Shown here: piece by piece, positions 43,913 through 63,882 of the stretch
Layout of the letters: each line of letters begins with the position of its first letter
Numbering within the stretch: position 1 is the stretch's first letter
NCBI GenBank assembly: GCA_963761705.1
Contig: CAVXHK010000003.1
Coordinates: 577,455 to 641,454 of the forward strand
Direction of reading: 5' to 3'
Source: an uncultured Verrucomicrobiae bacterium
GTDB taxonomy: Bacteria > Verrucomicrobiota > Verrucomicrobiia > Chthoniobacterales > JAATET01
DNA: 64,000 nucleotides
The notes under the pieces: generated by a model
Databases searched by the model: none
Told to the model about the DNA's origin: nothing
The model's input: the letters and a program-made list of their open reading frames with translations, nothing else
Made by a program: the position numbers and the translations under genes

Positions 43913-43960
43913 GGTCGGAAGGTCGGAAGGTCGGAAGGTCGGAAGGTCGGAAGGTCTGAG
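43913..43960. repeat. octanucleotide tandem repeat (GGTCGGAA)x5 plus one degenerate unit
   Basis: Read directly. It fills most of the 61-nt spacer between the upstream PilT-family gene stop (43966) and the pilT ATG (43904). Confidence 0.95.
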
Positions 43961-47808: not shown

Positions 47809-49358
47809 TGGAAGGGGCGCACCGCGAGCGAAGCGAGAAGGTCGACGGTGGCCGGGACATCTTTGATGATCTGGCTGCGGAGTGGACCAACGCCGATGTA
47901 GCGGAGGTTGGGTGGAGCGTCCTGGGCTCCCGCAACCTCGATGATGGCGCGGAGGACGGTCGCGACGTAGCGCTGGGCGGAGGCGGGGAGATCGGCGAAG
48001 TGGCGGGTGTCGCTCAGGTCTTCGGACCAGCCTGGGACGTATTCGTAGACGGGGCGAAGGGTGCGGCGGAACGTATCGTCGCGAGGAACGTGGTCGACGC
48101 GTTCGCCGTCGAGGGTCTCGTAGGCTACGCAGATCGCGAGTTCGCCGTCGGTCCAATCGCCTGAGTAACTCAGGGCATCGAGTTTGTTGAGGACGAGGTC
48201 CTGGTAGCCGCCGTAGCGGAGGGCGTCGCCTTTTTCGACCGCGTCGAACCAGCCGACCATGCGTTGGCGGCCGGTGGTGGAGCCAAATTCGATGCGGCGC
48301 AGCGTGCGGCCAAGCGGGTGGTCGTCGGTGAGTTCGGTGAGAAAAAGGTGGGTGCCGACCTTGGTGTCGTAGGCTTTGCAGCAGCCGATGGTGTGGACGG
48401 GCTGGGCGGGGATGCCGGCGGATTGGAAAAATTCCGGCGTGAAGGTGTGGGAGGCGGTGACGTTAGGTGGGAAGCCGTGGCGTTTGTCGAGCCAGTAGGC
48501 TTGGCCGAATTCACCAAGGATCGTTTGGCCTCGCGCGAGGGCTTGGAGGGTGAGTTCGCGGACGTCGGTGACGCTGGCGACGAGGGCCTGGCCGGCTTGC
48601 CAGTAAGTTTCGACGAGGAGTTCGACGTCGAGGGTGAAGGGCGGACCGGCGTTGAAACGGGTGAAGTCAAATTCGGCGGTGGAAAAGAGATCGGCGGCGA
48701 GGACCTCGGCGTGGGCGCGGGTCTCGGCGGTGGTGAGCGTCTCGAACAGTCCGGCCCAGCGGTCGGGGGAGAGTTGGCAGACGTGCTCGATGACCGCGAG
48801 GGCACGGTTGACGCGGGCGCGGACTTTGCGGTCGAAGAGCGAACGGTCGGCTCGGAAGTCGGAGTAGGTGATTTGGAATTGGGAAATCTCGTCCGTGTAG
48901 GCCGGGGTGATGCCGCGCCCAGTGGAACCCCGGGGTTCTTCGGCGAGGATCTCGGTCCGATAAAATTCCCACGCGAGGTCGAGGAGGCGGTGACTGAGAT
49001 CGGAGACGAGGGTGCGTTCGTCGATGCGGAGGCGGGGGAGGGCGGTGTGGCCGTGGAGTTCGCAGTAGGCGGCTTCCCAGAGGAATTTGCGTGGATCGGC
49101 GACGACGCCGGCGCCGATGGTGAGGTGCGGAACGTGGGGATCGACGACGCCCCCGGGGATGAGATTCAGTTTGACGTCGCCGACGGAATGGCCGGAGTTC
49201 GAACCGCCGTTGACTTTCATGACGGCGGCGACGGCGTCGGGGCGGCCGGTGGACTCGCGAATTTCGTCGAGGACCTCGAGGATAACGCGACCCTTGCCCT
49301 CGTCGCCGGTGGAGATGCCGGTGTCGGCGATGAGTTGGGATGTGAATGGGGATAACAT
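47805..49358 (-). CDS. purA: adenylosuccinate synthetase family protein, unusually long (517 aa)
   Basis: GDEGKGR P-loop, GGSNSGHS (=GGxNAGHT), [17 protein letters not shown] (=EGAQG), KAYDTKVG and [15 protein letters not shown] (=TTGRxRRxGW). It is about 85 aa longer than the 432-aa E. coli PurA, mostly through a central insertion. Confidence 0.75.
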
Positions 49359-49363
49359 GAGTT

Positions 49364-49402
49364 GGAAGGTCGAAGGTCGGAAAGTCGAAGGTCAGGAAGT
49401 GG
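49364..49402. repeat. degenerate 7/8-nt tandem tract (GGTCGAA/GGTCGGAA-type)
   Basis: GGAAGGTCGAAGGTCGGAAAGTCGAAGGTCAGGAAGTGG, immediately 5' of the PurA-like ATG (49358) in the guaB-purA spacer. It is related to the 43913-43960 and 55687-55714 tracts. Confidence 0.8.
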
Positions 49403-49464
49403 CTTCGCGTATCTAACAATCGCACCAGCGATTCTGAAACGACTTTCCGACCTTGGACTGCGCG

Positions 49465-51016
49465 TCATCGCGCTTCCGCCCCCGGCGTTGCCTTGACCGT
49501 GATGACGTCGTGGGGGTTGCTTTCGCGCTGGCCGGCGGGGCTGACGCGGATATAGCGGGCGTTTTCCCGGAGGGCGGGGAGGTCGCGGGCGCCGAGGTAG
49601 CCCATGCCGGACTGGAGGCCGCCGATGAGCTTCTCGGAGGACGGTGTCGAGGGGGCCGCTGGATTCTTTGAGGGCTTCGATGCCTTCGGGGGCGGCTTTC
49701 TGCGGGGCGTCGGATTTTTCGTGGCCGTAGCGGGCGGCGCTGCCTTCCTGCATGGCCTCGCGGGAACCCATGCCGCGGTATTGTTTGTAGACTTTGCCGT
49801 TGATCTCGATGATGCGGCCCGGGGATTCGTCGGCTCCGGCGAGGAGGCCGCCACAGATGACGGCGTCGGAGAGGGTGAGGGCTTTCACGATGTCGCCGGA
49901 CTTCGTGATACCGCCGTCGGCGATGGTGGTGACGTGATGCTCGGCGGCGGCGCGGGCGCAGACGTAAAGCGCGGTCATCTGCGGAATGCCGACGCCGGCG
50001 ACGACGCGGGTGGTGCAGATGCTGCCGGGTCCCTGGCCGATCTTGATCGTGCTGGCACCGGCTTTGGCTAGGAATTCCACGCCGTCGGCGCTGGTGACGT
50101 TGCCGGCGATGAGGGTGAGGTCGGGGAAGGCGTCGCGGATGAGGCGGACGGCGTCGCCGACGCCCTTCGTGAATCCGTGGGCGGTCGAGACGGCGATGGC
50201 GTCGATGCCTTCGTCGACGAGATTTCCGACGTGGCCGAGGATGCGGTCGCGGTCGAGGGTGCCGTCGGCGTGGCGGTGGGGCGAGACGGCGGCTCCGCAC
50301 ATGAGACGAAACTTGGCGTCGCGGGCGGGGCGGACGAGGCGACGGGTTTCCTCCTCGATGCGCTCGATGTCGGAGAGAGTGAAGAGGCCGCGGAGGCGGT
50401 CTTTTCCGTCAACGACGAGAAGCTTATGGATGCCGAGGTGTTCGGTGAAAAAGTGGTCGGCGGTGTCGATCGGCTTCGAGCGGATCTCGGATTCGGCGAT
50501 GGTGAAGACTTGGTCGCGCGGCGTCATGGCCTCGCGGACGGAGCGGTGGGCGTAGCGATTTTTCACGACGCGGCCTGGGAGTAAACCGAGGAGGCGATTT
50601 TCCGAATCGACGACCGGAAACGTGCTGAAGCCGAAGCGCTTTTTCGCGATGAGATCAAGGATTTCACCAATGAGCTGGTCGGGCCCGACCTTGATGGGCT
50701 CTTGAATGAAGCCGTGAATGTGATTTTTAACGCGGGCGACTTCTTTGACCTGAGCCTCATCGGTCATGTTGTAGTGGATGAGCCCGAGACCGCCGTTGAG
50801 GGCCATCTGGATCGCCATGCGCGACTCGGTCACGGTGTCCATGTCGGATGAGACGATGGGGAGTTGGAGCTGAAGGGAGTCCGAGAGGGCGACGGCCAGC
50901 TGGGCGTCACGGGGGAGAATCTCGGAGTAGCGCGTTGCGAGGCTGATGTCATCGAACGTGAGACCAACGGGCTGGCGGAAGAATTCGTCGGCGGCAAGGT
51001 AGAGGTCGTGGACCAT
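49465..51016 (-). CDS. guaB: IMP dehydrogenase, apparent frameshift near 49630-49645
   Basis: Full IMPDH with the CBS pair and GSICTTR active site. After ...[17 protein letters not shown] the conserved tail (E)[43 protein letters not shown] continues in the adjacent frame, which stops at 49465. Total length is 1552 nt, not a multiple of 3. Confidence 0.85.
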
Positions 51017-51149
51017 GGAGGAGGGTGTTAGCTCGTGTTTTGGGTGGCAAGGCGATTCTGTGAATGGCGGGGGAGCGGGCGAAAATGAACGGGCGGGTGG
51101 GGATTTTTGGAATTGGATCGGGGTGATCGCGGGGATAGCGTTGCGGCGG

Positions 51150-51638
51150 ATGAGACCGGGCGCCAGCATCGAGAAGCTTTGGATTTCTCCGGCGCACAAT
51201 TATTTTGGTCACTTCGGCAAGCCGCCGGGTGAACACGCGACCGTGTCGGTCGAGGCGGTGGAATGCCACGCTGGGAAGGGTCTGGTCGGGGATCGGTTTT
51301 ACGATTTCAAACCCGCGAAATTTCCGGATGGCTACGACGGGCAGGTCACGTTCTTCGCGGTCGAAACCTGGGAAGATTTGTGTGAGCTGATGGGAACGCG
51401 GGACCGGGGGCCGGAGGTCTTCCGGCGCAACGTGCTGACGCGGGGGGTGGATCTGCGGGGGATGAAGGGCGAGGAATTTTCGGTCCAGGGTGTGCGGTTT
51501 TTGGGGGTGAAAGAGGCGGCTCCGTGCCAGTGGATGGACGCGGCGTTTGGGCCGGGAGCCTTGACGGCGCTCAAGGGGCGGGGCGGTCTGCGGGCGCGGG
51601 TGCTGACGGATGGCGTGATTCGCGCGGGGGCGGCGTGA
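51150..51638 (+). CDS. MOSC domain-containing protein
   Basis: About 162 aa from ATG 51150: [15 protein letters not shown]...GLVGDRF...[11 protein letters not shown]...C.WMD...GGLRARVL, a MOSC-like beta-barrel pattern. Confidence 0.65.
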
Positions 51639-52201
51639 GCGGGCGGCTGGCGGCGGCCTTGTTGGTCGGCGGAAAGTCCGTGCGGATGGGGCGCGACAAG
51701 GCGTTCATCGAGTGGCAAGGCCGTCCGCTGTGGCGGCATCAGCTTGGGATTCTGCGCGCGCTCGGGCCGGACGAAGTCTTTCTCTGCATCGGGAACCGGA
51801 GCGACTTCAACGGCGATGGATCGGTGATGCTGAGTGACGATCCTGCGCACCGGGGTCCGATGGCGGGGATCGCGGCGGCTTTGGCGGCGACGGATTGCGA
51901 GTGGCTGCTCGTCCTGGCGATCGATCTGCCGGAGATGACCCCGCAGTTCCTGAAGCGGATGACCTCGAGCGCGACCGTCGAGGGTCGAGGGCAGGTGTTC
52001 GAACGGGGGGGCTATTTCGAAGGCCTGGCTGCCGTTTACGGGGAAGGCCTCAGCGCGTTGGCGGCGGAAGTGGCGGGAGGCTTGGACCCGTCGGTGCAAA
52101 ATTTCGTGCGCCTCGCTGCCGCCGCTGATGAAGTCCAGACGAGACCACTCCCCGCGTGGGACGAGTGGAAATTTCGGAATCTGAACACGCCCGATTCGTG
52201 A
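51635..52201 (+). CDS. mobA: molybdenum cofactor guanylyltransferase
   Basis: GTG 51635 overlaps the MOSC stop as GTGA. Contains LLVGGKSVRMGRDKAFIEW (LAGGxSxRMGxDK motif) and LVLAIDLPEM. Confidence 0.8.
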   Translation: MSGRLAAALLVGGKSVRMGRDKAFIEWQGRPLWRHQLGILRALGPDEVFLCIGNRSDFNGDGSVMLSDDPAHRGPMAGIAAALAATDCEWLLVLAIDLPEMTPQFLKRMTSSATVEGRGQVFERGGYFEGLAAVYGEGLSALAAEVAGGLDPSVQNFVRLAAAADEVQTRPLPAWDEWKFRNLNTPDS

Positions 52202-54457
52202 TCAGCGTGGCTCGAGCCGGACGGCGCACGCCTTGTAGGCGGGCTGGCGGGACGTCGGGTCGACTTCGTTGCGGGTGAGTTCGTTGGTGACGCCGTAGTG
52301 CATCGGGAGGAAGACCTGGCCGGGTTGGACGATGGGGGTGACGCAGGCGCGGACGGTGATCGTGCCGCGGCGGGAGGTGACGGCGACTTGCGATTCGGCG
52401 GTGATGCCGAGGCGGGCGGCGTCGGCGGGGTGGATCTCGACGTAGGCGTCGGCGGGATAGAGTTTGCGGAGGACGTCGCTCTTGCCGGTGCGGGTCTGGG
52501 TGTGCCACTGCGAAGAGGTGCCGCGGCCGGTGAGGAGCGTGAAGGGATACTCGGCGTCGGGGGGCTCGGCGAGCGGGCGGGGGGATTCGAAGATAAAGCG
52601 GGCGCGGCCGTCGGGGTGGTGAAACTGGCCGTCCTGAAAGAGCCGACGCTCTTGATTTATGATTGATGATTTACCATTGATGATTTGGGAAGTTTGGGCT
52701 TCGCCCTGGGTATAAGGCCATTGGATGCCGCCTTCGGTGTCGAGGTGCTGGTAGTCGCGGATGCCGGAGATGTCGCAGGGTTGGTCGGCCAGGGCGCGTT
52801 TCATGATTTGGAACGCGGCCTCGGGGCTGGTCCACTCGGCGAAGAGGTCGCCGCAACCCCACGCCTCGGCGAGGACGCGGATGATGCTGAAATCACTCAG
52901 CGCCTGGCCGGGGGCGCGGCGGACTTTTTTGACGAGGCCGATGCGGCGCTCGGAGTTGATGAAGGTGCCGTCTTTTTCGCCCCAGCCGGCGGCGGGGAGG
53001 ACGAGGTCGGCAAGCTGGGCGGTCTCGGTGGAATGATACATGTCCTGGACGACGAGGTAGTCGAGCTTGCGAAGGAGAGCCTGGGCGCGCTTGGATTGGA
53101 TCCAGGAATGGGCCGTGTTCGTGGCAACGACCCAAAGGCCTTTGATCTGGCCCGTCTCGATGCCGTCGATGATCTGGTCGTAGGCGAGGCTGTCGTCGTG
53201 CGGGATACGGTCGACGGGGATCCGGAGGGCGGCGGCGACTTTTTCGCGGTCGGCGGCGCTCTGGAACTTATGGCCGCCGAGGAGGTTCGTCGTGCTGGAG
53301 AAAATGCGCGACCCCATGGCGTTGCACTGGCCGGTGATGGAATTTGCGCCGGTGCCGGGGCGGCCGATGTTGCCCGTCATCAAAGCAAGGTTGATGATGG
53401 CTTGCGCGGTGCGGGTGGCTTCGTGGCTCTGATTCACGCCCATCGTCCACCAGAACGAAACGCGCCGACCGCGGGCGATGGTCGCGGCGAGGTCGTGGAT
53501 TTGCGCGACGGCGAGGCCGGTGTCGGCGGCGACGCGCTCGGGCGTGAAAGTGGTGGCGAACGCGGCGAACTCCTCGAAGCCGGTGGTGTGGGCTTCGATG
53601 AAACGGCGGTCGACGGTGTCGATGGCGATGAGCAGGGCGGCGACGCCGTAGAGGAGGGCGAGGTCGGATTTTGGACGGAGCGCGAGGTGATCGGTCGCGG
53701 CCATCGCGGTCTCGGTGCGTCGGGGATCGATGACGATGATGCGCGGATCGTGGGGATTGCGCATGACGCGCTGCCACATGATGGGGTGCGCGACGCAGAG
53801 GTTGGAACCGACAAAAACGAGCACGTCGGACTCCTCGAAGTCGGCGTAGGTGTAGGGCGGGGCGTCGAACCCGAACGACTCTTTGTAGGCGGATACGGCC
53901 GTGGCCATGCACTGCCGCGTGTTGCCGTCACCGTGGCGGATCCCCATTCCAAACTTGGCGACCACTCCAAGGAACGCCATCTCCTCGGAGACAATCTGGC
54001 CGGTGCTCAGGAACGCGAGACTGTCGGGACCGTGCTCGCGCTGGATGCGCTGGAAATGATCGCGGAAGGCCGTGGCGGCGGTCGGCCAGTCCGACGGCTT
54101 CAGCTCGCCGGTTCCGGCGTCCCGGATGAGCGGGGTCGTCGCCCGGTCGGGTGCATCGAGAGCGGACAGGGCCTCCCATCCTTTCGGACAGGCCATGCCA
54201 AGATTGACCGGATACTCGGTGTCGGCGGAGAGGTTGATCGCCTCGCCGTCCTTGAGGTGGATTCGGAGCCCGCAGCCGGTCGCGCAGTAGCCGCAGACGG
54301 CGGTCGTGGTCGCGTCGGGCGTGAGGCGGGTGGGCACGGAGCCGAGCCCGAACGCGGCGGGGGACTGAACGAGGTCGGCCGTGAGCGGGCCGGTGCGGGG
54401 GCGGAGGAGGGAGTCGGTTGAGAGTTGAGAGTCGATGGCCGAGCGGAGTTTTGACAT
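52202..54457 (-). CDS. nasA: assimilatory nitrate reductase catalytic subunit (molybdopterin oxidoreductase, NasA/NarB type)
   Basis: N-terminal CGYCATGCG 4Fe-4S motif, MGD-binding domains and a C-terminal molybdopterin dinucleotide-binding domain. No twin-arginine motif in the N-terminus. Confidence 0.88.
52652..52689. repeat. AT-rich heptamer-periodic element inside nasA, in-frame (encodes [12 protein letters not shown])
   Basis: On the coding strand it reads AAATCAT CAATGGT AAATCAT CAATCAT AAATCAA. Nt 52655-52688 are 34/34 identical to 61306-61339, the nrtC-nrtD spacer. Confidence 0.9.
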
Positions 54458-54485
54458 GGCAAGTTAGTTGGCTGGGTTGTTGGCC

Positions 54486-54760
54486 TTGGAAACGTTGGTC
54501 AACGTGGCGGAGCTGAAAACAATTTGAGTAAGTATCTCGCGAGGGTGGCGGAGGGGGAGACGGTGGTGATCTGCAATGGGAACCTGCCGATCGCGCGGGT
54601 CGAGGAGGTCTTCAAAAAAAGAACCGCAGCAAGGCGGGATTTGATCCGAGGGTCAAAATTCTCGGCTCGCTCCATGGCCCGCTCATTCCCGAGGAAGATT
54701 GGAACATGCCGCGGGATGATTTCGATCCGTTGGCGTGTGCGCAGTCGCGAAGGCGAGTGA
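54486..54760 (+). pseudogene. orphan Phd/YefM-type antitoxin remnant with at least 2 frameshifts, antisense to the nas operon
   Basis: TTG 54486 gives LETLVNVAELKTI*. The next frame gives LSKYLARVAEGETVVICNGNLPIARVEEV..., and a third gives LGSLHGPLIPEEDWNMPRDDFDPL. Together these form a typical antitoxin if one A is added at aaaacaAtttgag and one at tcaaaAttctc. No toxin ORF follows. The end coordinate is approximate. Confidence 0.5.
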
Positions 54761-54810
54761 ATCTTCCAACTCCTATTCTCAAACACCCGCACGTCCATTC
54801 GATGAGATGA

Positions 54811-56358
54811 TCACGCGCCGCCGGGCATGCGGTGGGCGACGACGGTGGTGAAGAATTGGTGGCGCTCGATGCCCTCGCTCAGGACGAGAATGGCCATACC
54901 GACGACCGGGAGGAAGGGGAGCAGCACCGCGCCAAGGACGGCGGTCGCGTTGCGCAGCAGCACCTGCCGGCGAAGCGGGCCGCGGAGGAGCTGGGCCGAG
55001 AGGGAATCGTGAGACGGGTCGGCGGGCGCGGCCTTTGCGCGGAAGCGGGCTTCGGCGAGAAGTTTTGCACCGAGGATCAGAAGCGCGATCGGATAACAGG
55101 CCGCGACGGCGGCGGTCGCAAAGAGTGCAACGGTGCCGTAAAACCGGAAAGCGGTGCGCGGAAAGCGCCAGAGTTCGCGCTGGGTATCGGCGTAGACCAT
55201 CACCGATGTGAATACGCAAAGGATGCCGTAGAGCGCAGCCGGGATGCCAATGAGACGCGGAAAGATCACCGCACCAGCGACGAGCGGCGGGAGAGCGCCG
55301 AAGGCGACGACCTCGCGGCTTAACCACGAGCGCCGCAGCCCGAGGAAGACGCGCCAGGCTTTGAGCGGCTGACCGAGGTGGAGGACGCTGGCGGTGAGGC
55401 CGGTCATGAGCGCCGCTAGCGCGGCGCAGTTGAGGGTTGAGAGTTTGAAGTTGAGAGTTGGTGAGAGGGTGAGGGGGAAGCTTGCCGACGAGATCGTTGC
55501 CGCGAGGACGAGACCAACGGCGGCCTGAGTGAGGGTGAGCATGATGACCAGCGGGAGGTGGCTGTGCTCGAGGCGGGGGCGGCGGGCGTCGGCGCGGCTG
55601 GCAGAGGACGGGATAATCTTTTTGGTGACGTAGCGGGTGGTGGGTTGCGTGTAGCTGGACGTGATGACGCCAGGCAGAAGCTGACCTTCGACCTTCGACT
55701 TTGGACTTTGGACTGAGACGATTTGAATCGCTTCCGTCGGGCAGGCTTGCACGCAGGCGGGGGCTTCGCCGACGGCGAGCCGCGAATGACACATGTCGCA
55801 TTTGCGGACGATGCCCTTTTTTTTGGAATACTTCGGGACGTCGTAGGGGCACTTGAGGCTGCAGTATTGGCAGCCGATGCACTGGTCGTCCAAATGGCGG
55901 ACGATGCCGGTGATTTCGTCCTTCTCGTAGGCGAGGACGGGGCAGCCGTTCGCGCAGGCGGGGTCGGCGCAGTGGTGGCAGGCGGTGGTGACGGTCTGCT
56001 GATACGCGATGCCTTCGGCTTCTCCGAGGAGCATACCGACGTCGCGCCACGTTTCGTTTTCCTCGAGTCCGTTCAGGCTGTGACAGGCGGAGACGCAGGC
56101 TTTGCAGCCGGTGCATTTGTCGAGGTCGACCTCGAACGCGTATTGCTCGCCGGGTCCGGGGGCGGTGAGGGGAATGAGGTCGCGGTAATGCTTGGCCTGA
56201 GTCGGACTCGTCGCGTCGGCGTGGTGCTGGGCGAAGCGCTCGGCCGCGGTGAGGTTGCGTTGCTCGGCGAGGAGTTCGTCGATGAGGTTGGGGGGAGTTG
56301 TTGGTTGTTGGTTATTGGTTATTGGTGAATGCCGCTCCGCTGGAGTGAGAGTGTTCAT
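54811..56358 (-). CDS. 4x[4Fe-4S] ferredoxin (DmsB/NrfC-like) fused to a DmsC-like polytopic membrane anchor
   Basis: Start ATG 56358 overlaps the DUF4202 stop as ATGA. Cys clusters CTGCKACVSAC, CHHCADPACANGC, CIGCQYCSLKC and CDMC...CVQAC, followed by ~8 TM helices. Three heptamer tracts lie in-frame. Confidence 0.75.
   Translation of the reverse strand: MNTLTPAERHSPITNNQQPTTPPNLIDELLAEQRNLTAAERFAQHHADATSPTQAKHYRDLIPLTAPGPGEQYAFEVDLDKCTGCKACVSACHSLNGLEENETWRDVGMLLGEAEGIAYQQTVTTACHHCADPACANGCPVLAYEKDEITGIVRHLDDQCIGCQYCSLKCPYDVPKYSKKKGIVRKCDMCHSRLAVGEAPACVQACPTEAIQIVSVQSPKSKVEGQLLPGVITSSYTQPTTRYVTKKIIPSSASRADARRPRLEHSHLPLVIMLTLTQAAVGLVLAATISSASFPLTLSPTLNFKLSTLNCAALAALMTGLTASVLHLGQPLKAWRVFLGLRRSWLSREVVAFGALPPLVAGAVIFPRLIGIPAALYGILCVFTSVMVYADTQRELWRFPRTAFRFYGTVALFATAAVAACYPIALLILGAKLLAEARFRAKAAPADPSHDSLSAQLLRGPLRRQVLLRNATAVLGAVLLPFLPVVGMAILVLSEGIERHQFFTTVVAHRMPGGA
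55430..55464. repeat. heptamer tract (TTGAGRG-type x5) in-frame in the membrane domain
   Basis: TTGAGGG TTGAGAG TTTGAAG TTGAGAG TTGGTGA, which encodes ...LSPTLNFKLSTLN.... Confidence 0.8.
55687..55714. repeat. heptamer tract (TTCGACC x2, TTGGACT x2) in-frame at the ferredoxin/membrane-domain junction
   Basis: Encodes VQSPKSKVEGQ between ...ACPTEAIQIVS and the first TM region. Confidence 0.85.
56298..56325. repeat. heptamer tract (TTGTTGG x2, TTATTGG x2) in-frame near the N-terminus
   Basis: Encodes ...SPITNNQQPTT..., 11-20 codons after the start. Confidence 0.85.
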
Positions 56359-56987
56359 GATGAGGCGAGCGCCTCGTTGAGGATCGACGCGGCCTCCGGG
56401 GAGACGGGGATGGCGGCGGCGAAGGCGTGCGCGGCGGGGGACATCTTTTTCCAGGTCTTGCGGAGGATCGTGACCAGTTGGTCGCGATTCGTTTTGTCGA
56501 TGAGCGCGTCGAGTTGTTGTTCGATGGTGACGAGGCAAAGGGCGTCTTCGAGGGTTTGCGTGTCGGGGTCGGTGCCGAGGTGTTCCTTGAGGTTGAGGGA
56601 GCGGACCCGGTCGATCAATTCGGTGTCGTAGCCAGCGGCGGCGAGGATGCCGGTCGCGGTGTCGGCGTGGAGGCGCTTGAGATTGGCTCGCCATTTGAGG
56701 TAACCGGGGCGAGTCATCGGGTAGGACGAACGCGGGACGCGCCACCGGGCGATGTGCTGGCAGCGGGCGGCGAGGCGAAGGGGTTCGGAGGGGGTGGGGT
56801 CAAGTTGGTGGACCCAGTGGGTGAGGCGTTGGGAATAGAAGAATTCGAAGGGGATGGGGGTCCCATCGACCTGGGCAGTTCGGGGGTCTTGGGCATTTTC
56901 CTCGTCGATTCTTGAAATGGCTTCTTCGAAGCGAGGGGAACGAGACCGGCTGGAAGCCGGTGCTACTCTGGGTTCAATACACATCAC
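56355..56987 (-). CDS. DUF4202-like protein
   Basis: RFEEAISRIDEENAQDP...RCQHIARWRVPRSSYPMTRPGYLKWRANLKRLHA matches my memory of DUF4202, which often neighbours nitrite/sulfite reductases. ATG 56987 overlaps the upstream gene by 14 nt. Confidence 0.55.
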   Translation of the reverse strand: MMCIEPRVAPASSRSRSPRFEEAISRIDEENAQDPRTAQVDGTPIPFEFFYSQRLTHWVHQLDPTPSEPLRLAARCQHIARWRVPRSSYPMTRPGYLKWRANLKRLHADTATGILAAAGYDTELIDRVRSLNLKEHLGTDPDTQTLEDALCLVTIEQQLDALIDKTNRDQLVTILRKTWKKMSPAAHAFAAAIPVSPEAASILNEALASS

Positions 56988-58734
56988 GTTGGTAGCGTTT
57001 GTTTGTTTTCAGGTCGGCTACGTAGGCGGCGGCTTCCTCTTCGGTTTTCCCTCCGGCGGTTTGGACGACTTGGTGGAGCGCCTCGTCGACGTCCTTGGCC
57101 ATGCGTTTGGCGTCGCCGCAGACGTAGAAATGCGCGCCGTCCTCGAGCCACGCCCAGAGGTCGGTCGCCCGCTCGATCATCCGATTCTGGACGTAGATTT
57201 TATCGGCCTGATCGCGGGAGAAAGCGGTGTCGAGGCGGGTGAGGTGGCCGTCCGCGAGAAAGGTTTCGAGTTCGTCCTCATAGAGAAAATCGGTGGCTGC
57301 TCTCTGGTCGCCAAAGAAGAGCCAGTTTTTTCCAGTTGCGCCGGTGGCTCGGCGATCATGGAGGAACGCGCGGAACGGCGCGATGCCGGTGCCGGGACCG
57401 ACCATGATCATCGGCGTGTCGCCCGACGGCGGGAGCCGGAAGCCTTTGGAGACCTGAACGAACACGGGGATCGGCCCCGTGACGCGGTCGGCGAGGAAGG
57501 TGGAGCAGACGCCCTTGCGCCCGCGACTGAAGCTGTCGTAGCGGACGGCGGCGATGGTGAGGTGGACTTGGTCGGGGAAGGCGTTGAGGCTCGACGAGAT
57601 TGAATAAAGCCGCGGCTGGAGCTTGCGAAGGTGGGACACGAAGTCGGCGGGCGTGAACGTGACGCCGGGGAAATCGACGAGCAGGTCGACGACCTCGCGG
57701 CCCCAGAGGTAATGCGCGAGCGCCTCCTTGGCTTCGGGGACCACGAGGTCGGCGAGCGTTTTGTCGGAGCTGCGTTCGGCGATGGCGTCGAGGAGCTGGG
57801 CGGGAATCCTGGTGATCTCGTAATCACGGACGAGGGCATTGCGGAGCGGGGCTTCGCCGCCTTCGGGCGTGGCCACGGCTTCCTCGCCGTCGCAATTGAG
57901 AGCGTGGAGGATCTCGTCGACGACGGCGGGGCAGTTCGACGGGATCACGCCGAGGGCGTCGCCGACTTCGTAGGTGAGGCCGGAGCCAGTGAGGTCGATT
58001 TCGAAGTGGCGGACTTCCTTGGCGGACGTGTCGGCGGTGAGCTTGCGGTTGGTGATGAGTTTGGCGGGGAAGGGGTGCTTTCTCCCGTAGGCGGGAGCAG
58101 GATTGATGATTGATGATTGATCATTTATGATTTGGGGAATGGCGGCTTCGCCGATTGGGAACTCGACCGACTCCAATGCGGTGAAGACGGCTTCCTGCCA
58201 GGTGGCGGCGGACTCTTCGTAGTCGACGTTGCAGTCGACTCGCTCGTAGAGGCGGCTGGCTCCGAGGTCGGTGAGGCGGGTGTCGACGTCGACTCCAAAT
58301 TTGCAGAACGCCTCGTAGTTCGTGTCGCCGAGGGCGAGGACGGAGTATCGGAAATTTTCGAGTCGCGGAGCCGTGTCGGCGATGAGTTCTTCGTGGAAAT
58401 CGTGGGCGTTGGCGGGTGGCTCGCCGTCGCCGAAGGTGCTCGTCACGATGAGGGCGACGGGCACGTTGGCTAAGTCCGCGACTTTGACTTTGTCGAGGCC
58501 GATGGCACTGGATTCCCAGCCGCGCTTCTTGGCGGCTTTGGCGATTTGTTTGGCCAGAGATTCGGCGTTGCCGCTTTCCGTGCCGAAGTAGATCGGGACC
58601 GTTTTTTTCGGGGCTTCGAGGGCCGCGGGAGTCGCGTCGTTGCCGGAGAAGACGCCCGCGAGGAAGCCGTTGAGCCAGGCGCGCTGCTCGGTCGAGAACG
58701 GAGCGGTGTCGGGAATGAAGGGTGCGGTGCTCAT
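56974..58734 (-). CDS. diflavin reductase (sulfite-reductase flavoprotein CysJ-like)
   Basis: Flavodoxin domain (IYFGTESGNAE, TFGDGEPP) plus an FAD/NADPH domain (RLYSISSS, MVGPGTGIAPFRAF, C-terminal ...YQRDVY). Confidence 0.85.
   Translation of the reverse strand: MSTAPFIPDTAPFSTEQRAWLNGFLAGVFSGNDATPAALEAPKKTVPIYFGTESGNAESLAKQIAKAAKKRGWESSAIGLDKVKVADLANVPVALIVTSTFGDGEPPANAHDFHEELIADTAPRLENFRYSVLALGDTNYEAFCKFGVDVDTRLTDLGASRLYERVDCNVDYEESAATWQEAVFTALESVEFPIGEAAIPQIINDQSSIINPAPAYGRKHPFPAKLITNRKLTADTSAKEVRHFEIDLTGSGLTYEVGDALGVIPSNCPAVVDEILHALNCDGEEAVATPEGGEAPLRNALVRDYEITRIPAQLLDAIAERSSDKTLADLVVPEAKEALAHYLWGREVVDLLVDFPGVTFTPADFVSHLRKLQPRLYSISSSLNAFPDQVHLTIAAVRYDSFSRGRKGVCSTFLADRVTGPIPVFVQVSKGFRLPPSGDTPMIMVGPGTGIAPFRAFLHDRRATGATGKNWLFFGDQRAATDFLYEDELETFLADGHLTRLDTAFSRDQADKIYVQNRMIERATDLWAWLEDGAHFYVCGDAKRMAKDVDEALHQVVQTAGGKTEEEAAAYVADLKTNKRYQRDVY
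58101..58136. repeat. AT-rich heptamer-periodic element in-frame in the flavodoxin-FNR linker (encodes QIINDQSSIIN)
   Basis: On the coding strand it reads AAATCAT AAATGAT CAATCAT CAATCAT CAATC. Confidence 0.9.
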
Positions 58735-58738
58735 TGGC

Positions 58739-60496
58739 TTAGTTCGTGAAGATTTCCTGCAGTTCGCCGACCGAATGCCGGGCCGTGAAGTCGCCGAAGG
58801 TCTCCGTGCCCTCGCGGCGTGCGAGGTAGGTTTTCAGGACGCCTTCGAGCAGCGCCGGGAGCTGCGGAAACGGAATGCCGGTGAAGACTTGGCGTCCGAT
58901 CATTTGCCCGCCGATGCTGCGTCCGCCGAGGACGACGTGGTAGCCGTCGACCTTCGCGCCGTTGTGGCTGACCTGGGCGCCGAGGAGGCCGATGTCGCCG
59001 ATGTAGTGCTGGGCGCAGGAATTCGGGCAACCGGTGAGGTGAATGTTGATCGGCTGGTCGAGGGTGAGCTTTTTCTGAAGGTGATTGGCTAATTCCAGCC
59101 CCTGCGCCTTGGTGGCGGATTGCGCCCATTTGCAGCCAGCGCTGCCGGTGCAGGCGATGAGGCCGCCGAGGATGGCGGTGGCTTCGTGGTGGAAGCCCAT
59201 GCGGACGAGGCTGCGCTTGACCGTCTCGACGAAGCCGTCGCTCACGTCGGGAACGAGGACGTTCTGCCAGACGGTGAGCCGGAGGTGGCCGGATCCGTGG
59301 TTCGCGGCGAGGTCGGCGAGCCGGTGCATCTGGCGGGAGGTCATCGTGCCGACGGGGGTGACGACGCCGACGTAATTGAGGTGTGGCTGTCTCTGACGCC
59401 AGACGCCGATGTGCGCGTGGGGGATCGGCGGGTGGGGTGGGGCGCAGGCTTCGAGGGGGAATGGGGTCAGCGGGAAGGCGAGTTTTTTCTCCGTTTCTTC
59501 GAGAAATTTCGGGATGCCCCACTGGTCGACCAAGTATTTGAGGCGCGCCTTTTTGCGGTTGGTGCGGTCGCCGTTTTCGGTGAAGACGCGGACCATGGCG
59601 GCGGCGACGGCGATGGCGTCGGCGGGTTTGACGAGGATGCCGGAGTCGGTGGCGAATTGCTCGTGGCCGGTGATGCCGCAGAGTTGAACGCGGAAGTAGA
59701 CGCCGGGCTCCACGGATTTCCCCTCGGGGACGCGGACGGCGAGGAAGCCGATGTCGTTGGTCTCGGCGACGGTGGCGATGGCGCCTCCGCCCTCGAAGGC
59801 GATGTTGAACTTCCGCGGCAGCTCATACATGTCGCGGTTGTTGAGGATGTAATAGTGCATTCCCTTGGCGAGCGGGCGGGTGTCGAGGAACTCGCCACGG
59901 TCGATGCCGCCGGTGGCCGACGCCGTGATGTTGCGCAGATTATCCACGCCGGATCCACGGGCGGTGAGGCCGAGGTCCTGCAATTTATTGAGCACGTTGA
60001 TCGTGTTCTTCGGCTCGATCTCGCGGATCTGCAGGTTGGCGCGGGTCGTGATGTGCGCGTATCCGCCGCCCCAGTCGTGCGCGATTTCCGCGATCCCGTG
60101 GAGTTGCGCGGACGTGAGTTCGCCGCCGGGGATCCGCATTCGCAGCATGAACGACTCCTGCACCGGGCTGACGTGGAAGAGGCCGAAATTGCGAAACTGA
60201 AACGTGTTGCGCTTGTCGGGAAGTTTGTTCTCCCGCGCGTGCTCGGCGAGGTCGTCCCACGTGTCGAGTCCGCTCTGCTCGTGCTTCCAGACTTCCTGCT
60301 CGCACAGGTCCTCGATCGGGGTGCCGTGGACCGTTGCCTCCGCGAGGTTCGGCGCGCCGGAGTCGGGGTCGCTGGTAAGGAGGCCGTCCGACTGCCGCCC
60401 GACGAAGGGTGCCCGCTGCGCGGCTCCGGCGAAGAAACCTTGCAGGTATTCCTTCTGTTCGGCGGTGAAGGGTTGAGTGGGCAGTTCGCTCATCAC
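58739..60496 (-). CDS. nirA: nitrite/sulfite reductase hemoprotein (siroheme-[4Fe-4S], NirA-type)
   Basis: Two NiR/SiR repeats and the Cys cluster CTGSAGC...LTGCPNSC. The + ORF 59120..60499 is its antisense shadow. Confidence 0.85.
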   Translation of the reverse strand: MMSELPTQPFTAEQKEYLQGFFAGAAQRAPFVGRQSDGLLTSDPDSGAPNLAEATVHGTPIEDLCEQEVWKHEQSGLDTWDDLAEHARENKLPDKRNTFQFRNFGLFHVSPVQESFMLRMRIPGGELTSAQLHGIAEIAHDWGGGYAHITTRANLQIREIEPKNTINVLNKLQDLGLTARGSGVDNLRNITASATGGIDRGEFLDTRPLAKGMHYYILNNRDMYELPRKFNIAFEGGGAIATVAETNDIGFLAVRVPEGKSVEPGVYFRVQLCGITGHEQFATDSGILVKPADAIAVAAAMVRVFTENGDRTNRKKARLKYLVDQWGIPKFLEETEKKLAFPLTPFPLEACAPPHPPIPHAHIGVWRQRQPHLNYVGVVTPVGTMTSRQMHRLADLAANHGSGHLRLTVWQNVLVPDVSDGFVETVKRSLVRMGFHHEATAILGGLIACTGSAGCKWAQSATKAQGLELANHLQKKLTLDQPINIHLTGCPNSCAQHYIGDIGLLGAQVSHNGAKVDGYHVVLGGRSIGGQMIGRQVFTGIPFPQLPALLEGVLKTYLARREGTETFGDFTARHSVGELQEIFTN

Positions 60497-60504
60497 TAAT
60501 CGGG

Positions 60505-61302
60505 TCAGTCCGCGAGGACCGGGTCGCCGAAGCGCTCGTAAAGGAAATCGAGGATCTGGTTGCGCAGCGTGTAATAGCGCGGGTCTTCGCCGATGGCGTC
60601 GCGGGAGCGCGGGCGCTCGAAGGGGACGTCGAAAATCTCGCCGACCGTGGCGGCGGGGCCGTTCGTGAGCATGACGATGCGGTCGGCGAGGAGAATGGCT
60701 TCGTCGATGTCGTGGGTGATCATCACGACGGTCGTGCGGGTCGCTTCCCAGATTTCGAGAAGCTGATCCTGAACTTCCTCGCGCGTGAGGGCGTCGAGCG
60801 CGCCAAATGGCTCGTCCAGGAGGAGGACTTTCGGGCGGATGGCGAGCGCGCGGGCGATGGCGACGCGTTGCTTCATTCCGCCGGAGAGTTCGCCGGGGCG
60901 CTTGTGGGCGCTGGGCGTGAGGCCGACCATCTCGATGTGTTCGTCGGTGATGCGGGCGCGCTCGGCCTTCGAGATCTTCGGCATCGTGGCGTCGACGGCG
61001 AGGCGGACGTTGTCGGTGGCGGTCAGCCAGGGGAGGAGCGAGTAGTTTTGGAAAACCATCATGCGGTCGGGGCCGGGTTCGGTCACTTCCCGGCCTTCGA
61101 GGATCACGCCGCCTTCGGTCGGGGCGCTCATGCCGGCGATGGCGTTCATGAGCGTGGATTTGCCGCAGCCGGAATGCCCGAGAAGGACGATGAACTCACC
61201 TTCCTCGACCTTGAGCGCGATGTCCTTGAGCACGCACGTCGGCGGACCGCCCGCGCGACCGGGATAGGTCTTCGTCAGTTTGGTGAGTTCGAGGTAGGGC
61301 AT
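60505..61302 (-). CDS. nrtD: nitrate/nitrite (NitT/TauT family) ABC transporter ATP-binding protein, NrtD-like
   Basis: Walker [19 protein letters not shown] signature, Walker [12 protein letters not shown]; 265 aa. Confidence 0.85.
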
Positions 61303-61303
61303 G

Positions 61304-61340
61304 TTATTTATGATTGATGATTTACCATTGATGATTTGGC
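61304..61340. repeat. AT-rich heptamer-periodic element filling the nrtC-nrtD intercistronic spacer
   Basis: The 42-nt gap between stop 61345 and ATG 61302 is essentially this element. 61306-61339 is identical to 52655-52688. Confidence 0.9.
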
Positions 61341-61344
61341 CGGG

Positions 61345-63138
61345 TTAGGCGGGCTGGAGGGTGGGGGACGGGTGGACTTGGTCGAGGAGAGTTTCGGGGT
61401 CCGCGGGCGGGGCGACGACTTTCCAGCGGGTGAGGCCTGCGAGGATGTTTTCCGACTCGGCGCGGGTGAGGGTGGTTTCGGAGAAGACGTTGAAGTCGGG
61501 GACTTCGGCGGTCTTTCCGTGGCCGTAGTCGTAGGTGCCGTCGAGACCGCGGGCGCTGTAGGCGGGGTCGGCGTTGACGTAGGTTTTTTGCGAAATGATT
61601 TCGATGAGCTCGGCGCGGTTGGCGGGTTCGTCGCACCAGCCGCAGGCTTCTTCGAGGGCGGCGACGATGGACGCGTGCTTGTCGACGTTGGCGTTCGCCC
61701 ACGCGGGCGTGGTGCCGAGGAGCTTCTCGACGTGGCCGGGGGCGAGGTCGAGGTCGGTTGCGACGACGTAGCCGATGCCCTCGTGAACGGCGCGGGCGTT
61801 CCAAGGTTCGCCGACGCAATAGCCGTCGAGGTTGCCGGCGGCGAGGTTGGCGACCATCTGCGCGGGCGGGACGGCGATAATCTCGACGTCCGTATCGGGG
61901 TCGATCCCGCCCGCGCTCAGCCAATCGCGGAGCAGGATATTGTGGGTGGAGGTCGGGAAAACCACGCCGAAGATGAGCTTGCGGTCGCCCGCGTCGCGTC
62001 CGTCGAGGTAGGCCCGAAGGTCGGTGGCGGTCTGGATCCCGCGGGCGTGAAAGCGCTCGGCGAGCGTGATGGCGTTGCCATTTCGGCTCAGGACCATCGA
62101 TGCGACGACGGGTTGCGGGTTCACCCCCGGGCGGCCCAGGGTGGAGCCGAGCGGCATACCGGCCACCATGGCGGCGAGGTCGAGTCGGCTGTCGAGGACG
62201 CCGTCGAGGATGGCCTTCCAACTCGGCTCGCGGCAGAGCTGAACGTCGACGCCGTGCTTCTCGAAAAATCCCTTTTCTTTTGCGATGGCTAATGGGGCGC
62301 AGTCGGAGAGCGGAATGAACCCGATGGTCGTGGCGGTTCGCTTCGGACCGTCGGCCTTTCTGGCTTTGTGCTTGTTGAGGAAATAGAGGAGTTCGTTGCG
62401 CTGCCGGTAATAGTTCGGGTGATTGATGGCCTCGCCGCGGGTGCGGGGTCGGGTGAGACCGACGGTCATGAGCTCGCCCACCTTGGCGGCGGGGCCGTTG
62501 GACATCATCACGACGCGGTCGGAGAGCAGGATCGCTTCTTCGACGTCGTGGGTGACCATGAGGACGGTGATGCGATGGGCCTCCCAAATGCTGAGGAGTT
62601 GTTCCTGCAGGCGGCCGCGGGTGAGGGCGTCGAGGGCGCCGAAGGGTTCGTCGAGGAGGAGGACGCGGGGCTTGACGACGAGGGCGCGGGCGATGCCGAC
62701 GCGCTGCTTCATGCCGCCGGAGATTTCGCCGGGGAGTTTGTCGGCGGCGGGGATGAGCGAGACCATGGCCAGGTGCTCGTCCACGAGGGCGGTCCGGTCG
62801 GCTTTGCCAAGGGTGCCGTGGACGGCGTCGACGCTGAGGCGGACGTTCTGGCGGACTGTTAGCCACGGGAGGAGGGAGTGGTTCTGGAAAACGAACATGC
62901 GGTCGGGGCCGGGGCCGGTGACGGGTTTGCCGCCAACGGTGATGCTGCCGGTGTCGCAGAGGTGGAAACCGCCGACCATGTTGAGAAGGGTCGATTTGCC
63001 GCAACCGGAGTGGCCGATGAGAGCCACGAATTCGCCCTCGCTAACGCTCAAATTGACCCCTTGGAGGGCGGTGAACGTTTTGCCGTCGGGGGACTTGAAG
63101 GTCTTTCCAGCGTCTTGAATGTCGATGAAAGCGGTCAA
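61345..63138 (-). CDS. nrtC: nitrate ABC transporter ATP-binding protein with a C-terminal NrtA-like solute-binding/regulatory domain, NrtC-like
   Basis: N-terminal ABC ATPase ([18 protein letters not shown]) plus a ~330-aa periplasmic-binding-protein-like domain, which is the NrtC architecture. The only possible start is TTG 63138, because an in-frame TAA lies directly upstream. Confidence 0.85.
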   Translation of the reverse strand: MTAFIDIQDAGKTFKSPDGKTFTALQGVNLSVSEGEFVALIGHSGCGKSTLLNMVGGFHLCDTGSITVGGKPVTGPGPDRMFVFQNHSLLPWLTVRQNVRLSVDAVHGTLGKADRTALVDEHLAMVSLIPAADKLPGEISGGMKQRVGIARALVVKPRVLLLDEPFGALDALTRGRLQEQLLSIWEAHRITVLMVTHDVEEAILLSDRVVMMSNGPAAKVGELMTVGLTRPRTRGEAINHPNYYRQRNELLYFLNKHKARKADGPKRTATTIGFIPLSDCAPLAIAKEKGFFEKHGVDVQLCREPSWKAILDGVLDSRLDLAAMVAGMPLGSTLGRPGVNPQPVVASMVLSRNGNAITLAERFHARGIQTATDLRAYLDGRDAGDRKLIFGVVFPTSTHNILLRDWLSAGGIDPDTDVEIIAVPPAQMVANLAAGNLDGYCVGEPWNARAVHEGIGYVVATDLDLAPGHVEKLLGTTPAWANANVDKHASIVAALEEACGWCDEPANRAELIEIISQKTYVNADPAYSARGLDGTYDYGHGKTAEVPDFNVFSETTLTRAESENILAGLTRWKVVAPPADPETLLDQVHPSPTLQPA

Positions 63139-63176
63139 TTTATTTATGATTTACCATTTATGATTGATGATTTGGG
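63139..63176. repeat. AT-rich heptamer array, left boundary of the four-helix-bundle cassette
   Basis: TTTATTTATGATTTACCATTTATGATTGATGATTTGGGG. Nt 63142-63165 match the reverse complement of 63527-63550 at 23/24 positions. Confidence 0.9.
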
Positions 63177-63184
63177 GTGAGATC

Positions 63185-63541
63185 ATGAATCGGGATCAAC
63201 TGGCGGCTCGGACGAAAGAGTTTGCGAAACGCGTGCTGAGGGTGGCTGAGGCGTTGCCGACTGGTTACGCGGGGCGGACGATTGGGAATCAGATCTGCCG
63301 AAGCGGGTGTTCGGTGGCCGCGAACTACCGGGCGGCTCTGCGCGGGAAGTCCCGAGCCGACTTTGCCAATAAGATCACCGTCGTTCTCGAGGAGGCGGAC
63401 GAAACGATGTTCTGGCTCGAAATGATCGACGAAATGGACCTGCTTCCGAAGAGCAAACTCGAGCCCCTCCTCGGCGAAGCCGGAGAGCTGGTCAAGATCT
63501 TCGGAGCAACCCTCGCCACCACCAAAAATCATAAATCGTAA
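63185..63541 (+). CDS. four-helix-bundle protein (23S rRNA IVS protein / Avd-like family), full-length copy 1
   Basis: 118 aa: MNRDQLAARTKEFAKRVLRVAEALP...GNQICRSGCSVAANYRAA.RGKSRADFANKI..VLEEADETMFWLEM. The family pattern (F...v......P........Q..RS..SI.AN..EG....S..DF..k......E..ET..WL) is recognisable. It lies antisense to the nrt operon. Confidence 0.8.
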   Translation: MNRDQLAARTKEFAKRVLRVAEALPTGYAGRTIGNQICRSGCSVAANYRAALRGKSRADFANKITVVLEEADETMFWLEMIDEMDLLPKSKLEPLLGEAGELVKIFGATLATTKNHKS

Positions 63542-63560
63542 ATCATAAATCATAAATCTA
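63526..63560. repeat. (AAATCNT)x5 heptamer array, right boundary of copy 1
   Basis: AAATCAT AAATCGT AAATCAT AAATCAT AAATCTA. It overlaps the last codons and the stop of copy 1. Confidence 0.95.
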
Positions 63561-63562
63561 AC

Positions 63563-63856
63563 GTGGCGTTGCCGACTGGTTACGCGGGGCGGACGATTGG
63601 GAATCAGATCTGCCGAAGCGGGTGTTCGGTGGCCGCGAACTACCGGGCGGCTCTGCGCGGGAAGTCCCGAGCCGACTTTGCCAATAAGATCACCATCGTT
63701 CTGGAGGAGGCGGACGAAACGATGTTCTGGCTCGAAATGATCGACGAAATGGACCTGCTTCCGAAGAGCAAACTCGAGCCCCTCCTCGGCGAAGCCGGAG
63801 AGCTGGTCAAGATCTTCGGAGCAACCCTCGCCGCCACCAAAAATTATAAATCGTAA
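63563..63856 (+). CDS. four-helix-bundle protein, 5'-truncated tandem copy 2
   Basis: Homology to copy 1 begins at 63566 (=63251). It lacks the first ~22 codons, and GTG 63563 is a possible start. I count 4 substitutions over ~290 nt versus copy 1. It may be non-functional. Confidence 0.6.
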   Translation: MALPTGYAGRTIGNQICRSGCSVAANYRAALRGKSRADFANKITIVLEEADETMFWLEMIDEMDLLPKSKLEPLLGEAGELVKIFGATLAATKNYKS

Positions 63857-63882
63857 ATCATAAATCATAAATCATAAATCTA
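63841..63882. repeat. (AAATNNT)x6 heptamer array after copy 2
   Basis: AAATTAT AAATCGT AAATCAT AAATCAT AAATCAT AAATCTA, one unit more than after copy 1. Confidence 0.95.

Follow-up and report, generated by a model that had tools for sequence, protein, structure and literature searches.

Introduction

TAACTGA heptamer direct repeats, known from Beggiatoaceae, Cyanobacteria and Bacteroidetes with a patchy distribution across phyla, lie mostly a few nucleotides upstream of start codons that have no Shine-Dalgarno site; in forward orientation they carry stops in all frames, a few copies occur at the peripheries of open reading frames (ORFs) or proteins, and a role in translation has been proposed for them, with S1, Csp and CsrA suggested as binding proteins (MacGregor 2015, PMC4679880). 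Over-represented heptameric repeats have also been described in Xanthomonas (GGGAATC), in Nostoc (GGGGAYT) and as the cyanobacterial STRR sequences, and are found less often than expected in coding regions (Rehm 2015, PMC4692102). Rickettsia palindromic elements (RPEs) are in-frame, intragenic miniature inverted-repeat transposable elements, or MITEs, of ~150 bp that are palindromic, are not based on tandem repeats and encode a conserved peptide (review PMC10969869), and the heptanucleotide tract (ATCTTTC)n of the Haemophilus influenzae hmwA promoter, studied with 13-24 units, is phase-variable (PMC8262952). Here we analyze a heptamer array translated inside nasA, the gene for a NasA-type assimilatory nitrate reductase catalytic subunit, in a 64,000-nt stretch of DNA from an uncultured Verrucomicrobiae bacterium (contig CAVXHK010000003.1, positions 577,455 to 641,454); this whole stretch is called the window, and all coordinates refer to it unless a relative is named.

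The tract in nasA is probably a tolerated, translated passenger copy of a start-codon-associated family of heptamer arrays, carried in a permissive loop of the enzyme. In gene sense the family can be written (AAATCAT/CAATCAT)n, typically beginning CCAAATC, and its usual home is the 30-45 bases directly 5' of a start codon. The NasA copy was most likely copied from a sister array, by ectopic gene conversion or a transposition-like process and not by local slippage, and would have ended up in a hypervariable loop that directly precedes the C-terminal domain and can accommodate added residues. It adds 13 residues to the loop and probably has no part in catalysis.

Results

A degenerate heptamer array is translated within NasA

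NasA comprises the Molybdop_Fe4S4, Molybdopterin (residues 105-531) and Molydop_binding (residues 639-745) domains. It has thousands of homologues, several of them labelled 'assimilatory nitrate reductase catalytic subunit' by JGI, and its closest solved structure is NapA of D. desulfuricans (2jio). We set the limits of the tract at 52653-52692 (52652-52689 in an earlier note on this DNA, made from the sequence alone). On the plus strand it reads TGATTTA TGATTGA TGATTTA CCATTGA TGATTTG G, a solo array of ~5.5 units of 7 nt. Tandem Repeats Finder describes it with period 7 (4.7 copies, 73% matches) or period 14 (2.4 copies, 90% matches), and the longest exact runs are 6 nt at period 7 and 11 nt at period 14. 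The 7-nt repeat element that the earlier note had seen is therefore present and translated, but it is imperfect, a degenerate mixture of units.

The 39 nt of the array encode 13 residues, codons 590-602 of 751. The in-frame peptide proposed in the earlier note is found exactly in the intact ORF, and so is its placement directly ahead of the C-terminal molybdopterin-dinucleotide-binding domain, which begins at residue 639. The GC content of the tract is 0.375-0.40, compared with a window average of 0.634, and GC at third codon positions falls to 0.31 over the array-coded codons from 0.85 over the whole gene.

The tract, being a single arm, has no predicted RNA structure (z = -0.8), and Rfam gave no match at E <= 1 over 49000-64000. 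Internal translation initiation after the tract was rejected because no in-frame ATG, GTG or TTG follows it. A promoter reading was dropped after by-eye comparison with sigma-70 hexamers and the Bacteroidetes -7 motif, which left the impression that the spacing is unfit. The tract is not known to be complementary to the ends of 16S rRNA, no formal test having been made.

An identical sister array fills the spacer ahead of nrtD

A low-GC-island scan together with a repeat search revealed five further tracts of the AAATCAT-type family in the last 12 kb of the window, giving six sets with the NasA copy (Table 1). No tandem-repeat period is commoner in the window than 7, which accounts for nine arrays of at least 3 copies where any other period has at most four. 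The segment 52655-52688 of the NasA tract and the segment 61306-61339 of array B are identical over 34/34 nt, the unusual ACC unit included. Array B occupies a non-coding spacer between nrtC and nrtD (labels given from gene context), and the presence of the same 34-mer in a coding sequence is thus incidental. Array D, the second in-frame copy, shares with the NasA copy a 5' flank, GGCGAAGCC (Gly-Glu-Ala), located 9 nt upstream of the array. Association with start codons, seen in the window where arrays abut the nrtD ATG and the nrtC TTG, holds for the family and not for the NasA copy.

The closest relative, L001, encodes a NasA that is 85% identical; no closer strain was found in the databases searched, where the 90% protein cluster of NasA has one member. 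A parallel arrangement is present in L001, in which the NasA-loop arm has a close paralogue (14 nt exact, ~33/37 by eye) ~10 nt upstream of a start codon at 18070, the diflavin-hinge array has a paralogue at 20809-20840, and a leader array at 5824 resembles the DmsC-loop array. An identical copy of a dispersed repeat 8.6 kb away makes local slippage an unlikely origin for the NasA tract, and its 34 nt in common with array B, its flank in common with array D and the L001 parallel together suggest that blocks of 35-40 nt were copied and not grown unit by unit.

The insert lies in a naturally variable loop

Alignment of 119 NasA orthologues delimits the host loop as the segment between GG(I/V)QWP and ERRLF, with a length of 8-43 aa and a median of 17. 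After L001, the closest orthologues are P0003 and P0004 (75-76% identical), whose loop is of 8 aa compared with 21 residues in the window; this identifies the window's 21 residues as largely an insertion and bears out the alignment check that the earlier note had called for. A minimal, array-less loop of 8-10 aa is present in many orthologues, these two among them, and NapA of D. desulfuricans has its own loop of ~25 residues at the aligned position. The site is a naturally variable loop. In an AlphaFold model the mean pLDDT is 81 and drops to 56 at residues 591-600; length variability and low model confidence agree with the loop setting that the earlier note had supposed, and with the tolerated insertion that it had offered as its second choice.

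Loops of the orthologues carry a seven-residue periodicity, with 231 self-matches at 7-aa spacing compared with 71-134 for other spacings (3-10), and at least three such matches in 34 loops compared with 5-15 loops for other spacings. In five chosen orthologues (L001-L005) the DNA traces this periodicity to heptanucleotide arrays, of which the loops consist. In 4/5 of them the loop is an inverted array pair around a GC-rich spacer (arms in Table 1). Paired arms fold far better than shuffled controls (z = -3.0 to -7.6), and single-arm loops fold no better than controls in the window or in L004 (z = -0.1). Among 62 unselected metagenomic NasA loops, from orthologues at most 67% identical to the window NasA, heptamer arrays are present in ~10, and the long ones are mostly hairpins. 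Arrays also recur at a second site, the diflavin hinge, in the window, L001 and L003 and apparently, judged by position, in L152, L179 and L196.

Selection against stop codons shapes the translated arrays

Five of the six frames of the NasA tract contain stops, and the sole open frame is the one that NasA uses. Pure AAATCAT repeats are read as KS*IINH and put a stop at every seventh codon of each frame on both strands. Alternation of AAATCAT with CAATCAT and CAATGGT units spares the NasA copy from this. Units free of stops form perfect or near-perfect arrays (CATCCTT in L002 with 100% matches, CGAACAT in L004 with 89%), and units that generate stops vary exactly at the would-be stop (TAT for TAA in L003; GAA and TCA in L005). 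Among 71 period-7 arrays in 86 loci, 35 pass in frame through ORF interiors, and every in-frame array examined, in all loci, leaves its ORF open. Selection against stop codons holds the frame of the NasA tract open. The copy survives because its 39 nt keep the frame, its frame is the only one of six without a stop, and its variant units remove the in-frame TAA.

Open in-frame arrays with stop-avoiding variants point to colinear decoding, neither bypassed nor spliced. Translational-bypass insertions (T4 gene 60; the mitochondrial 'byps' of Magnusiomyces) are short, sometimes hairpin-forming, mobile, and located inside coding genes, and they need be neither open nor a multiple of three. The arrays here are likewise short and within genes but are read through, not skipped, and a bypass or recoding insertion was rejected on the grounds that the NasA insert is 39 nt, open and in frame, as are 35 other in-frame arrays.

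Leader and cassette arrays are near-invariant and in-frame arrays are not

Comparison of the window with L001 gives an identity of 54-72% at fourfold-degenerate sites. Array E is identical to its L001 orthologue at 46/46 positions (probability ~2e-8 at a neutral identity of 68%), and array C differs by one substitution and one indel in ~75 nt. The PF05635 gene enclosed by these two arrays is only 54% identical at fourfold sites, which excludes recent transfer of the cassette; the leader and cassette arrays are therefore either constrained or continually homogenized. Array B is absent from L001, where nrtC and nrtD overlap (ATGA), so that it was gained in the lineage of the window.

At the NasA loop the two genomes carry unrelated arrays. 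The other in-frame arrays are 57-86% identical to those of L001, about the same as or below the gene-wide nucleotide identity of 81-85%, and by this comparison in-frame arrays appear unconstrained in sequence. Their lengths are steadier, 4/5 of the other orthologous in-frame arrays of the cluster being exactly equal in L001 and the DmsC-loop array differing by 2 aa. The N-terminal array of NasA is (CTCGACT)3.9 in L001, and the stretch it encodes (LDSRLSTHSIL in L001) is equally long in the two proteins, with a 3-aa indel immediately upstream of it at residues 3-5.

The array family extends across phyla

An exact scan for the 18-mer GATTTACSATTKATGATT, with one genome per species, returned at least 120 stretches; 120 loci were fetched (L006-L125), and the matches listed number 124. 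They fall in more than 100 genomes of many phyla, among them Verrucomicrobiota, Planctomycetota, Bacteroidota, Chloroflexota, Acidobacteriota, Ignavibacteria and Patescibacteria, with units AAATCAT, AAATCGT and CAATCAT in loci of 27% to 68% GC. By a hand estimate with equal base frequencies, ~70 chance matches are expected in 596 Gb; nearly all of those listed extend into more GATT(T/G)A(C/T) units, even in genomes of 55-68% GC. Forty-nine viral contigs (L206-L254) carry the motif too.

In AAATC sense, an ORF of at least 60 aa starts no more than 12 nt downstream of 45/124 listed arrays, and ~20 arrays end exactly ...AATCATA-A-ATG. The proteins downstream look like housekeeping enzymes, for example MetF, Fmt, DnaX, TrpS, SecY and MurG, as judged by eye from their N-termini, with no family search. 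An inverted partner occurs within 250 nt in 15/119 listed arrays, always upstream, which gives the architecture arm-loop-arm-start codon. In 784 kb of NasA-bearing metagenomic loci, period 7 again dominates the tandem repeats, with 25 arrays and at most 10 for any other period. The literature searched for the repeat strings yielded no description of the AAATCAT/AAATCGT/CAATCAT unit family, the published analogue being TAACTGA.

Two further ideas were abandoned. A general tie to PF05635 did not hold, since eight ORFs matched the profile, three of them in the window and L001 and the rest in ~5/120 listed cross-phylum loci; the cassette of the window is nonetheless genuine. The two array copies of L016 do not mark a small element, as both belong to a duplicated region of ~420 bp.

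Other arrays and neighboring genes

Genes and arrays are collected in Table 1. The PF05635 gene lies on the opposite strand between two nitrate-transporter genes, at 63139-63560 with its arrays in the window and at 991-1407 in L001, a layout that recalls an rRNA intervening sequence but is placed within an mRNA operon. Its last codons and its stop codon are supplied by array E. The enclosing arms C and E (TGATTTA/AAATCAT) are 84% complementary, with a duplex energy of -27.7 kcal/mol. A 315-bp unit, made up of the 3' three-quarters of the PF05635 gene and its AAATCAT array, is repeated at 63250-64000 in 2.4 tandem copies of 97-99% identity that run off the end of the window; a GTG after each array could start a truncated PF05635 ORF, and the tandem repeat may be a genuine amplification or may stem from collapse or expansion in the assembly. 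The 5- versus 6-unit difference that the earlier note reported at 63526/63841 is real and separates the nearly pure arrays E and F of these tandem copies, which lie in non-essential DNA.

The nrtC product is a fusion of an ABC ATPase with an NMT1-type binding domain. Between the nitrite reductase gene and nasA are genes for a 4Fe-4S dicluster/DmsC-like membrane-anchor fusion (54811-56358) and a CysJ-like diflavin reductase, syntenic in L001-L005, which may form an unusual electron-supply route for the assimilatory nitrate reductase.

Further from nasA, a (GAAGGTC)4 array is present at 49365-49398, in the overlap between the stop-to-stop ORFs for IMP dehydrogenase and for adenylosuccinate synthetase, and its reverse-complement unit (GACCTTC) recurs at 55683-55699. 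Two PilT-like (T2SSE) ATPase genes are separated by a spacer that holds a perfect octamer array at 43913-43956, in gene sense (CCTTCCGA)5.5, placed 14 nt upstream of the second gene's ATG. Of all tracts in the window this octamer array is the purest and the most prone to slippage, which makes it a stronger candidate for length variation than the tract in NasA.

In L002, the squalene-hopene cyclase gene has two heptamer hairpins (19571-19665 and 20855-20961). One, GTTCGAT/ATCGAAC, straddles the start codon (z = -8.1), and the second, AAGGATG/CATCCTT, is internal and in frame (z = -8.6) and has the unit of the L002 NasA loop.

Table 1. Arrays and genes of the window, with the loop arms of relatives
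Feature	Position	Strand	Description
nasA, NasA-type assimilatory nitrate reductase catalytic subunit	52202..54457	-	751 aa, intact; Pfam PF04879, PF00384, PF01568
NasA heptamer-array tract	52653..52692	-	gene sense CCAAATC ATCAATG GTAAATC ATCAATC ATAAATC AAG
NasA N-terminal in-frame array	54417..54432	-	unit TCTCAAC; Tandem Repeats Finder
In-frame array, CTCAACT-type	55428..55460	-	membrane (DmsC-like) part of Fer4/DmsC fusion protein
In-frame array, GAAGGTC / CAAAGTC	55683..55714	-	linker between Fer4_11 and DmsC domains
In-frame array, CCAATAA / CCAACAA	56297..56326	-	encodes ITNNQQPTT near N-terminus of Fer4/DmsC protein (gene 54811-56358)
Diflavin reductase hosting array D	56974..58734	-	Flavodoxin_1 + FAD_binding_1 + NAD_binding_1
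Array D, second in-frame copy	58096..58142	-	encodes PQIINDQSSIINP, hinge between flavodoxin and FAD-binding domains
nrtD, ABC-transporter ATPase gene	60505..61302	-	Pfam ABC_tran; start codon abuts array B
Array B	61303..61344	-	whole spacer between nrtC TAA stop (61345-61347) and nrtD ATG (61300-61302)
Array C	63139..63177	-	ends exactly at TTG start (63136-63138) of nrtC; on + strand precedes PF05635 gene
PF05635 gene (23S rRNA intervening-sequence protein / four-helix-bundle)	63185..63541	+	enclosed by inverted arrays C and E
Array E	63520..63560	+	(AAATCAT)n, 4.7 units, inverted relative to array C
Array F	63835..63882	+	(AAATCAT)n, 5.7 units; counterpart of array E in next 315-bp tandem unit, one heptamer longer
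L001 NasA loop arms			GAAATGN left / CCATTTC right
L002 NasA loop arms			AAGGATG left / CATCCTT right
L003 NasA loop arms			AGTAATC left / GATTACT right
L005 NasA loop arms			AAGAATT left / AATTCTT right

Discussion

Alternative explanations

Several observations weigh against a tolerated passenger copy. Heptamer arrays crowd the nitrate-assimilation cluster and its edges, with ~11 in 15 kb (49000-64000) and one (1711-1733) in the other 49 kb, a clustering that a purely neutral model fails to explain; L001 is equally biased, with 11 heptamer arrays in its first 13 kb. The arrays flanking the PF05635 gene are almost invariant, so that the motif is constrained somewhere, and the internal copy might be recognized by the same factor. 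Recurrence of arrays at the NasA loop and the diflavin hinge in many lineages could reflect function instead of mere tolerance. In comparison with L001, neither the NasA site nor the nrtC/nrtD site, whose flanks have diverged, shows a visible target-site duplication or terminal inverted repeat, and no copying mechanism was identified, no transposase being linked in the 64 kb seen, where no RAYT search was made. Solvent exposure of the insert is suggested by loop variability and low pLDDT, not by coordinates.

With these points in view, it is possible, though we think it unlikely, that heptamer arrays, typically as hairpin-forming inverted pairs, are distinct and very small self-propagating or functionally maintained elements of Verrucomicrobiota and other Shine-Dalgarno-poor phyla. 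As leaders they would end at start codons, remain near-invariant and probably be bound by a conserved factor of translation or RNA processing; copies in loops and hinges would be translated and would persist or be re-acquired phylum-wide, and the NasA tract would be the product of a copy-and-paste or RNA-level system, not a passive scar. Hairpin recurrence at inter-domain sites, concentration in the cluster, near-invariance of the leaders and the mode of spread keep this reading alive.

That the NasA tract itself is a functional RNA- or translation-level element kept at a domain boundary is improbable. Such an element might act through the factor binding of leader arrays, through ribosome slowing or tuning between domains III and IV, or through mRNA processing. 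It would account for the recurrence at two sites in many lineages, for the concentration of arrays in the nitrate-assimilation cluster, for the strong folding of relatives' versions (z = -3 to -9.3) and for leader and cassette arrays that are 46/46 and ~73/75 identical at a fourfold-site identity of 54-72%. The window copy, however, is an unstructured single arm with no start codon after it, the sequence at the NasA site is unconserved even in the 85% identical orthologue, and many orthologues do with a loop of 8-10 aa and no array. Domain boundaries are also the most insertion-tolerant positions, so position alone fails to discriminate.

Still less probable is a microsatellite born in place by local duplication and slippage, with its likeness to other tracts stemming from a unit favored by the genome. 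Heptameric simple sequence repeats are over-represented in many bacteria and polymerase slippage has been proposed as their cause (Rehm 2015, PMC4692102, citing Mrazek 2007); period 7 dominates the tandem repeats of all loci examined, and L001 has another heptamer array at the same NasA loop. Independent slippage would not, however, reproduce the order of variant units, ACC unit included, that the NasA tract shares with 61306-61339, nor does birth in place sit well with the flank shared with the diflavin copy or the recurrence in L001 of an in-frame array with a leader paralogue.

Very unlikely indeed is a contingency locus, the phase-variable switch for nitrate assimilation that the earlier note had proposed, in which NasA would go off and on as slipped-strand events add or remove a 7-nt unit: its frame-shift premise is sound, since the unit is not a multiple of three and simulated +/-7 indels truncate the protein near residue 597, before domain IV, and both the one-unit change between arrays E and F and an 11-nt exact direct repeat, 14 nt apart, inside the tract speak for slippage, but the tract is not pure (73% matches and a 6-nt exact run, versus 13-24 ATCTTTC units at hmwA, PMC8262952), an OFF state at codon 590/751 of a cytoplasmic enzyme would waste a 590-aa product, 4/5 of the sister arrays are length-stable in L001 despite ~30% change at fourfold sites (the fifth differs by 2 aa), the 120 orthologues in the database are without exception full length, and the ORF stays open at every in-frame array examined, with no frameshifted allele seen. 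The tract also lies at neither the 5' end nor the promoter of a surface, host-interaction or restriction-modification gene, the setting typical of contingency loci.

Implications

Taken as a tolerated passenger copy, the AT-rich segment of nasA does not point to an assembly error or a pseudogene lesion, nor does it switch nitrate assimilation, and annotation should keep the ORF intact. Beyond this gene, different heptamers occupy two inter-domain sites repeatedly, in many cases as hairpins; whether a unit remains pure visibly depends on selection against in-frame stops; and conservation of the sister arrays at start codons far exceeds that of synonymous sites, with a unit common across phyla. 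The little-studied TAACTGA-repeat phenomenon is thereby extended to new phyla and a new unit, and the loci offer sites for two questions, how start codons are marked in Shine-Dalgarno-poor bacteria and how repeats of 30-40 nt spread with no known transposase.

Comparison with known systems

Contingency loci of the hmwA type share with the NasA tract a 7-nt unit whose gain or loss would alter expression, here through the reading frame. They are long and pure, lie at promoters or 5' ends of surface or host-interaction genes and vary among isolates (PMC8262952), whereas the NasA tract has 5.5 degenerate units late in a metabolic enzyme and no variation was observed in it.

RPEs resemble the tract as dispersed short repeats that lie in frame in unrelated metabolic genes and add a peptide compatible with the fold (PMC10969869). 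They differ from it in build, the tract being a solo, non-palindromic heptamer array of 39 nt in which no terminal inverted repeats or target duplication were seen. REP sequences and REPINs recall the unit of the relatives, a doublet of inverted short repeats round a spacer that forms a hairpin, with solo copies resembling REP singlets; REPs, however, are extragenic and are not heptamer arrays, and the window copy is a singlet inside a gene. Measured against RPEs, MITEs and REPINs together, the window copy has the high-identity dispersed copies (34/34 nt) and lacks the palindrome or hairpin (z = -0.8).

The heptameric repeats of Xanthomonas and Nostoc and the STRR sequences also have period 7, and form many dispersed sets, mostly between co-oriented ORFs and at most 50 bp from a start or stop codon; some form inverted pairs, and related species share occupied intergenic sites with variation in length and sequence (PMC4692102). 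The NasA tract differs in being AT-rich, unable to form a quadruplex, and translated.

The TAACTGA repeats, dispersed over the genome in sets of 2-6 or more, share several features with the arrays described here, of which six sets lie within 12 kb of the window: tandem heptamers near starts, whose downstream genes have no common function, and stops that restrict ORF-internal copies to one orientation. The unit TTACTGA of L003 and L153 is one base off TAACTGA. The differences are in the unit (AAATCAT/AAATCGT/CAATCAT), in the host, a GC-rich genome of verrucomicrobial type, and in position, the NasA copy lying inside a conserved enzyme and not at a terminus. Relatives here form hairpins from inverted pairs, compared with one indirect repeat among 170 repeat sets in BOGUAY (PMC4679880), and about half of the arrays in the loci sampled are in frame within genes. 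The usual home directly 5' of start codons indicates kinship with TAACTGA and STRR-type repeats, and the array family is of the same kind as these published heptamer repeats.

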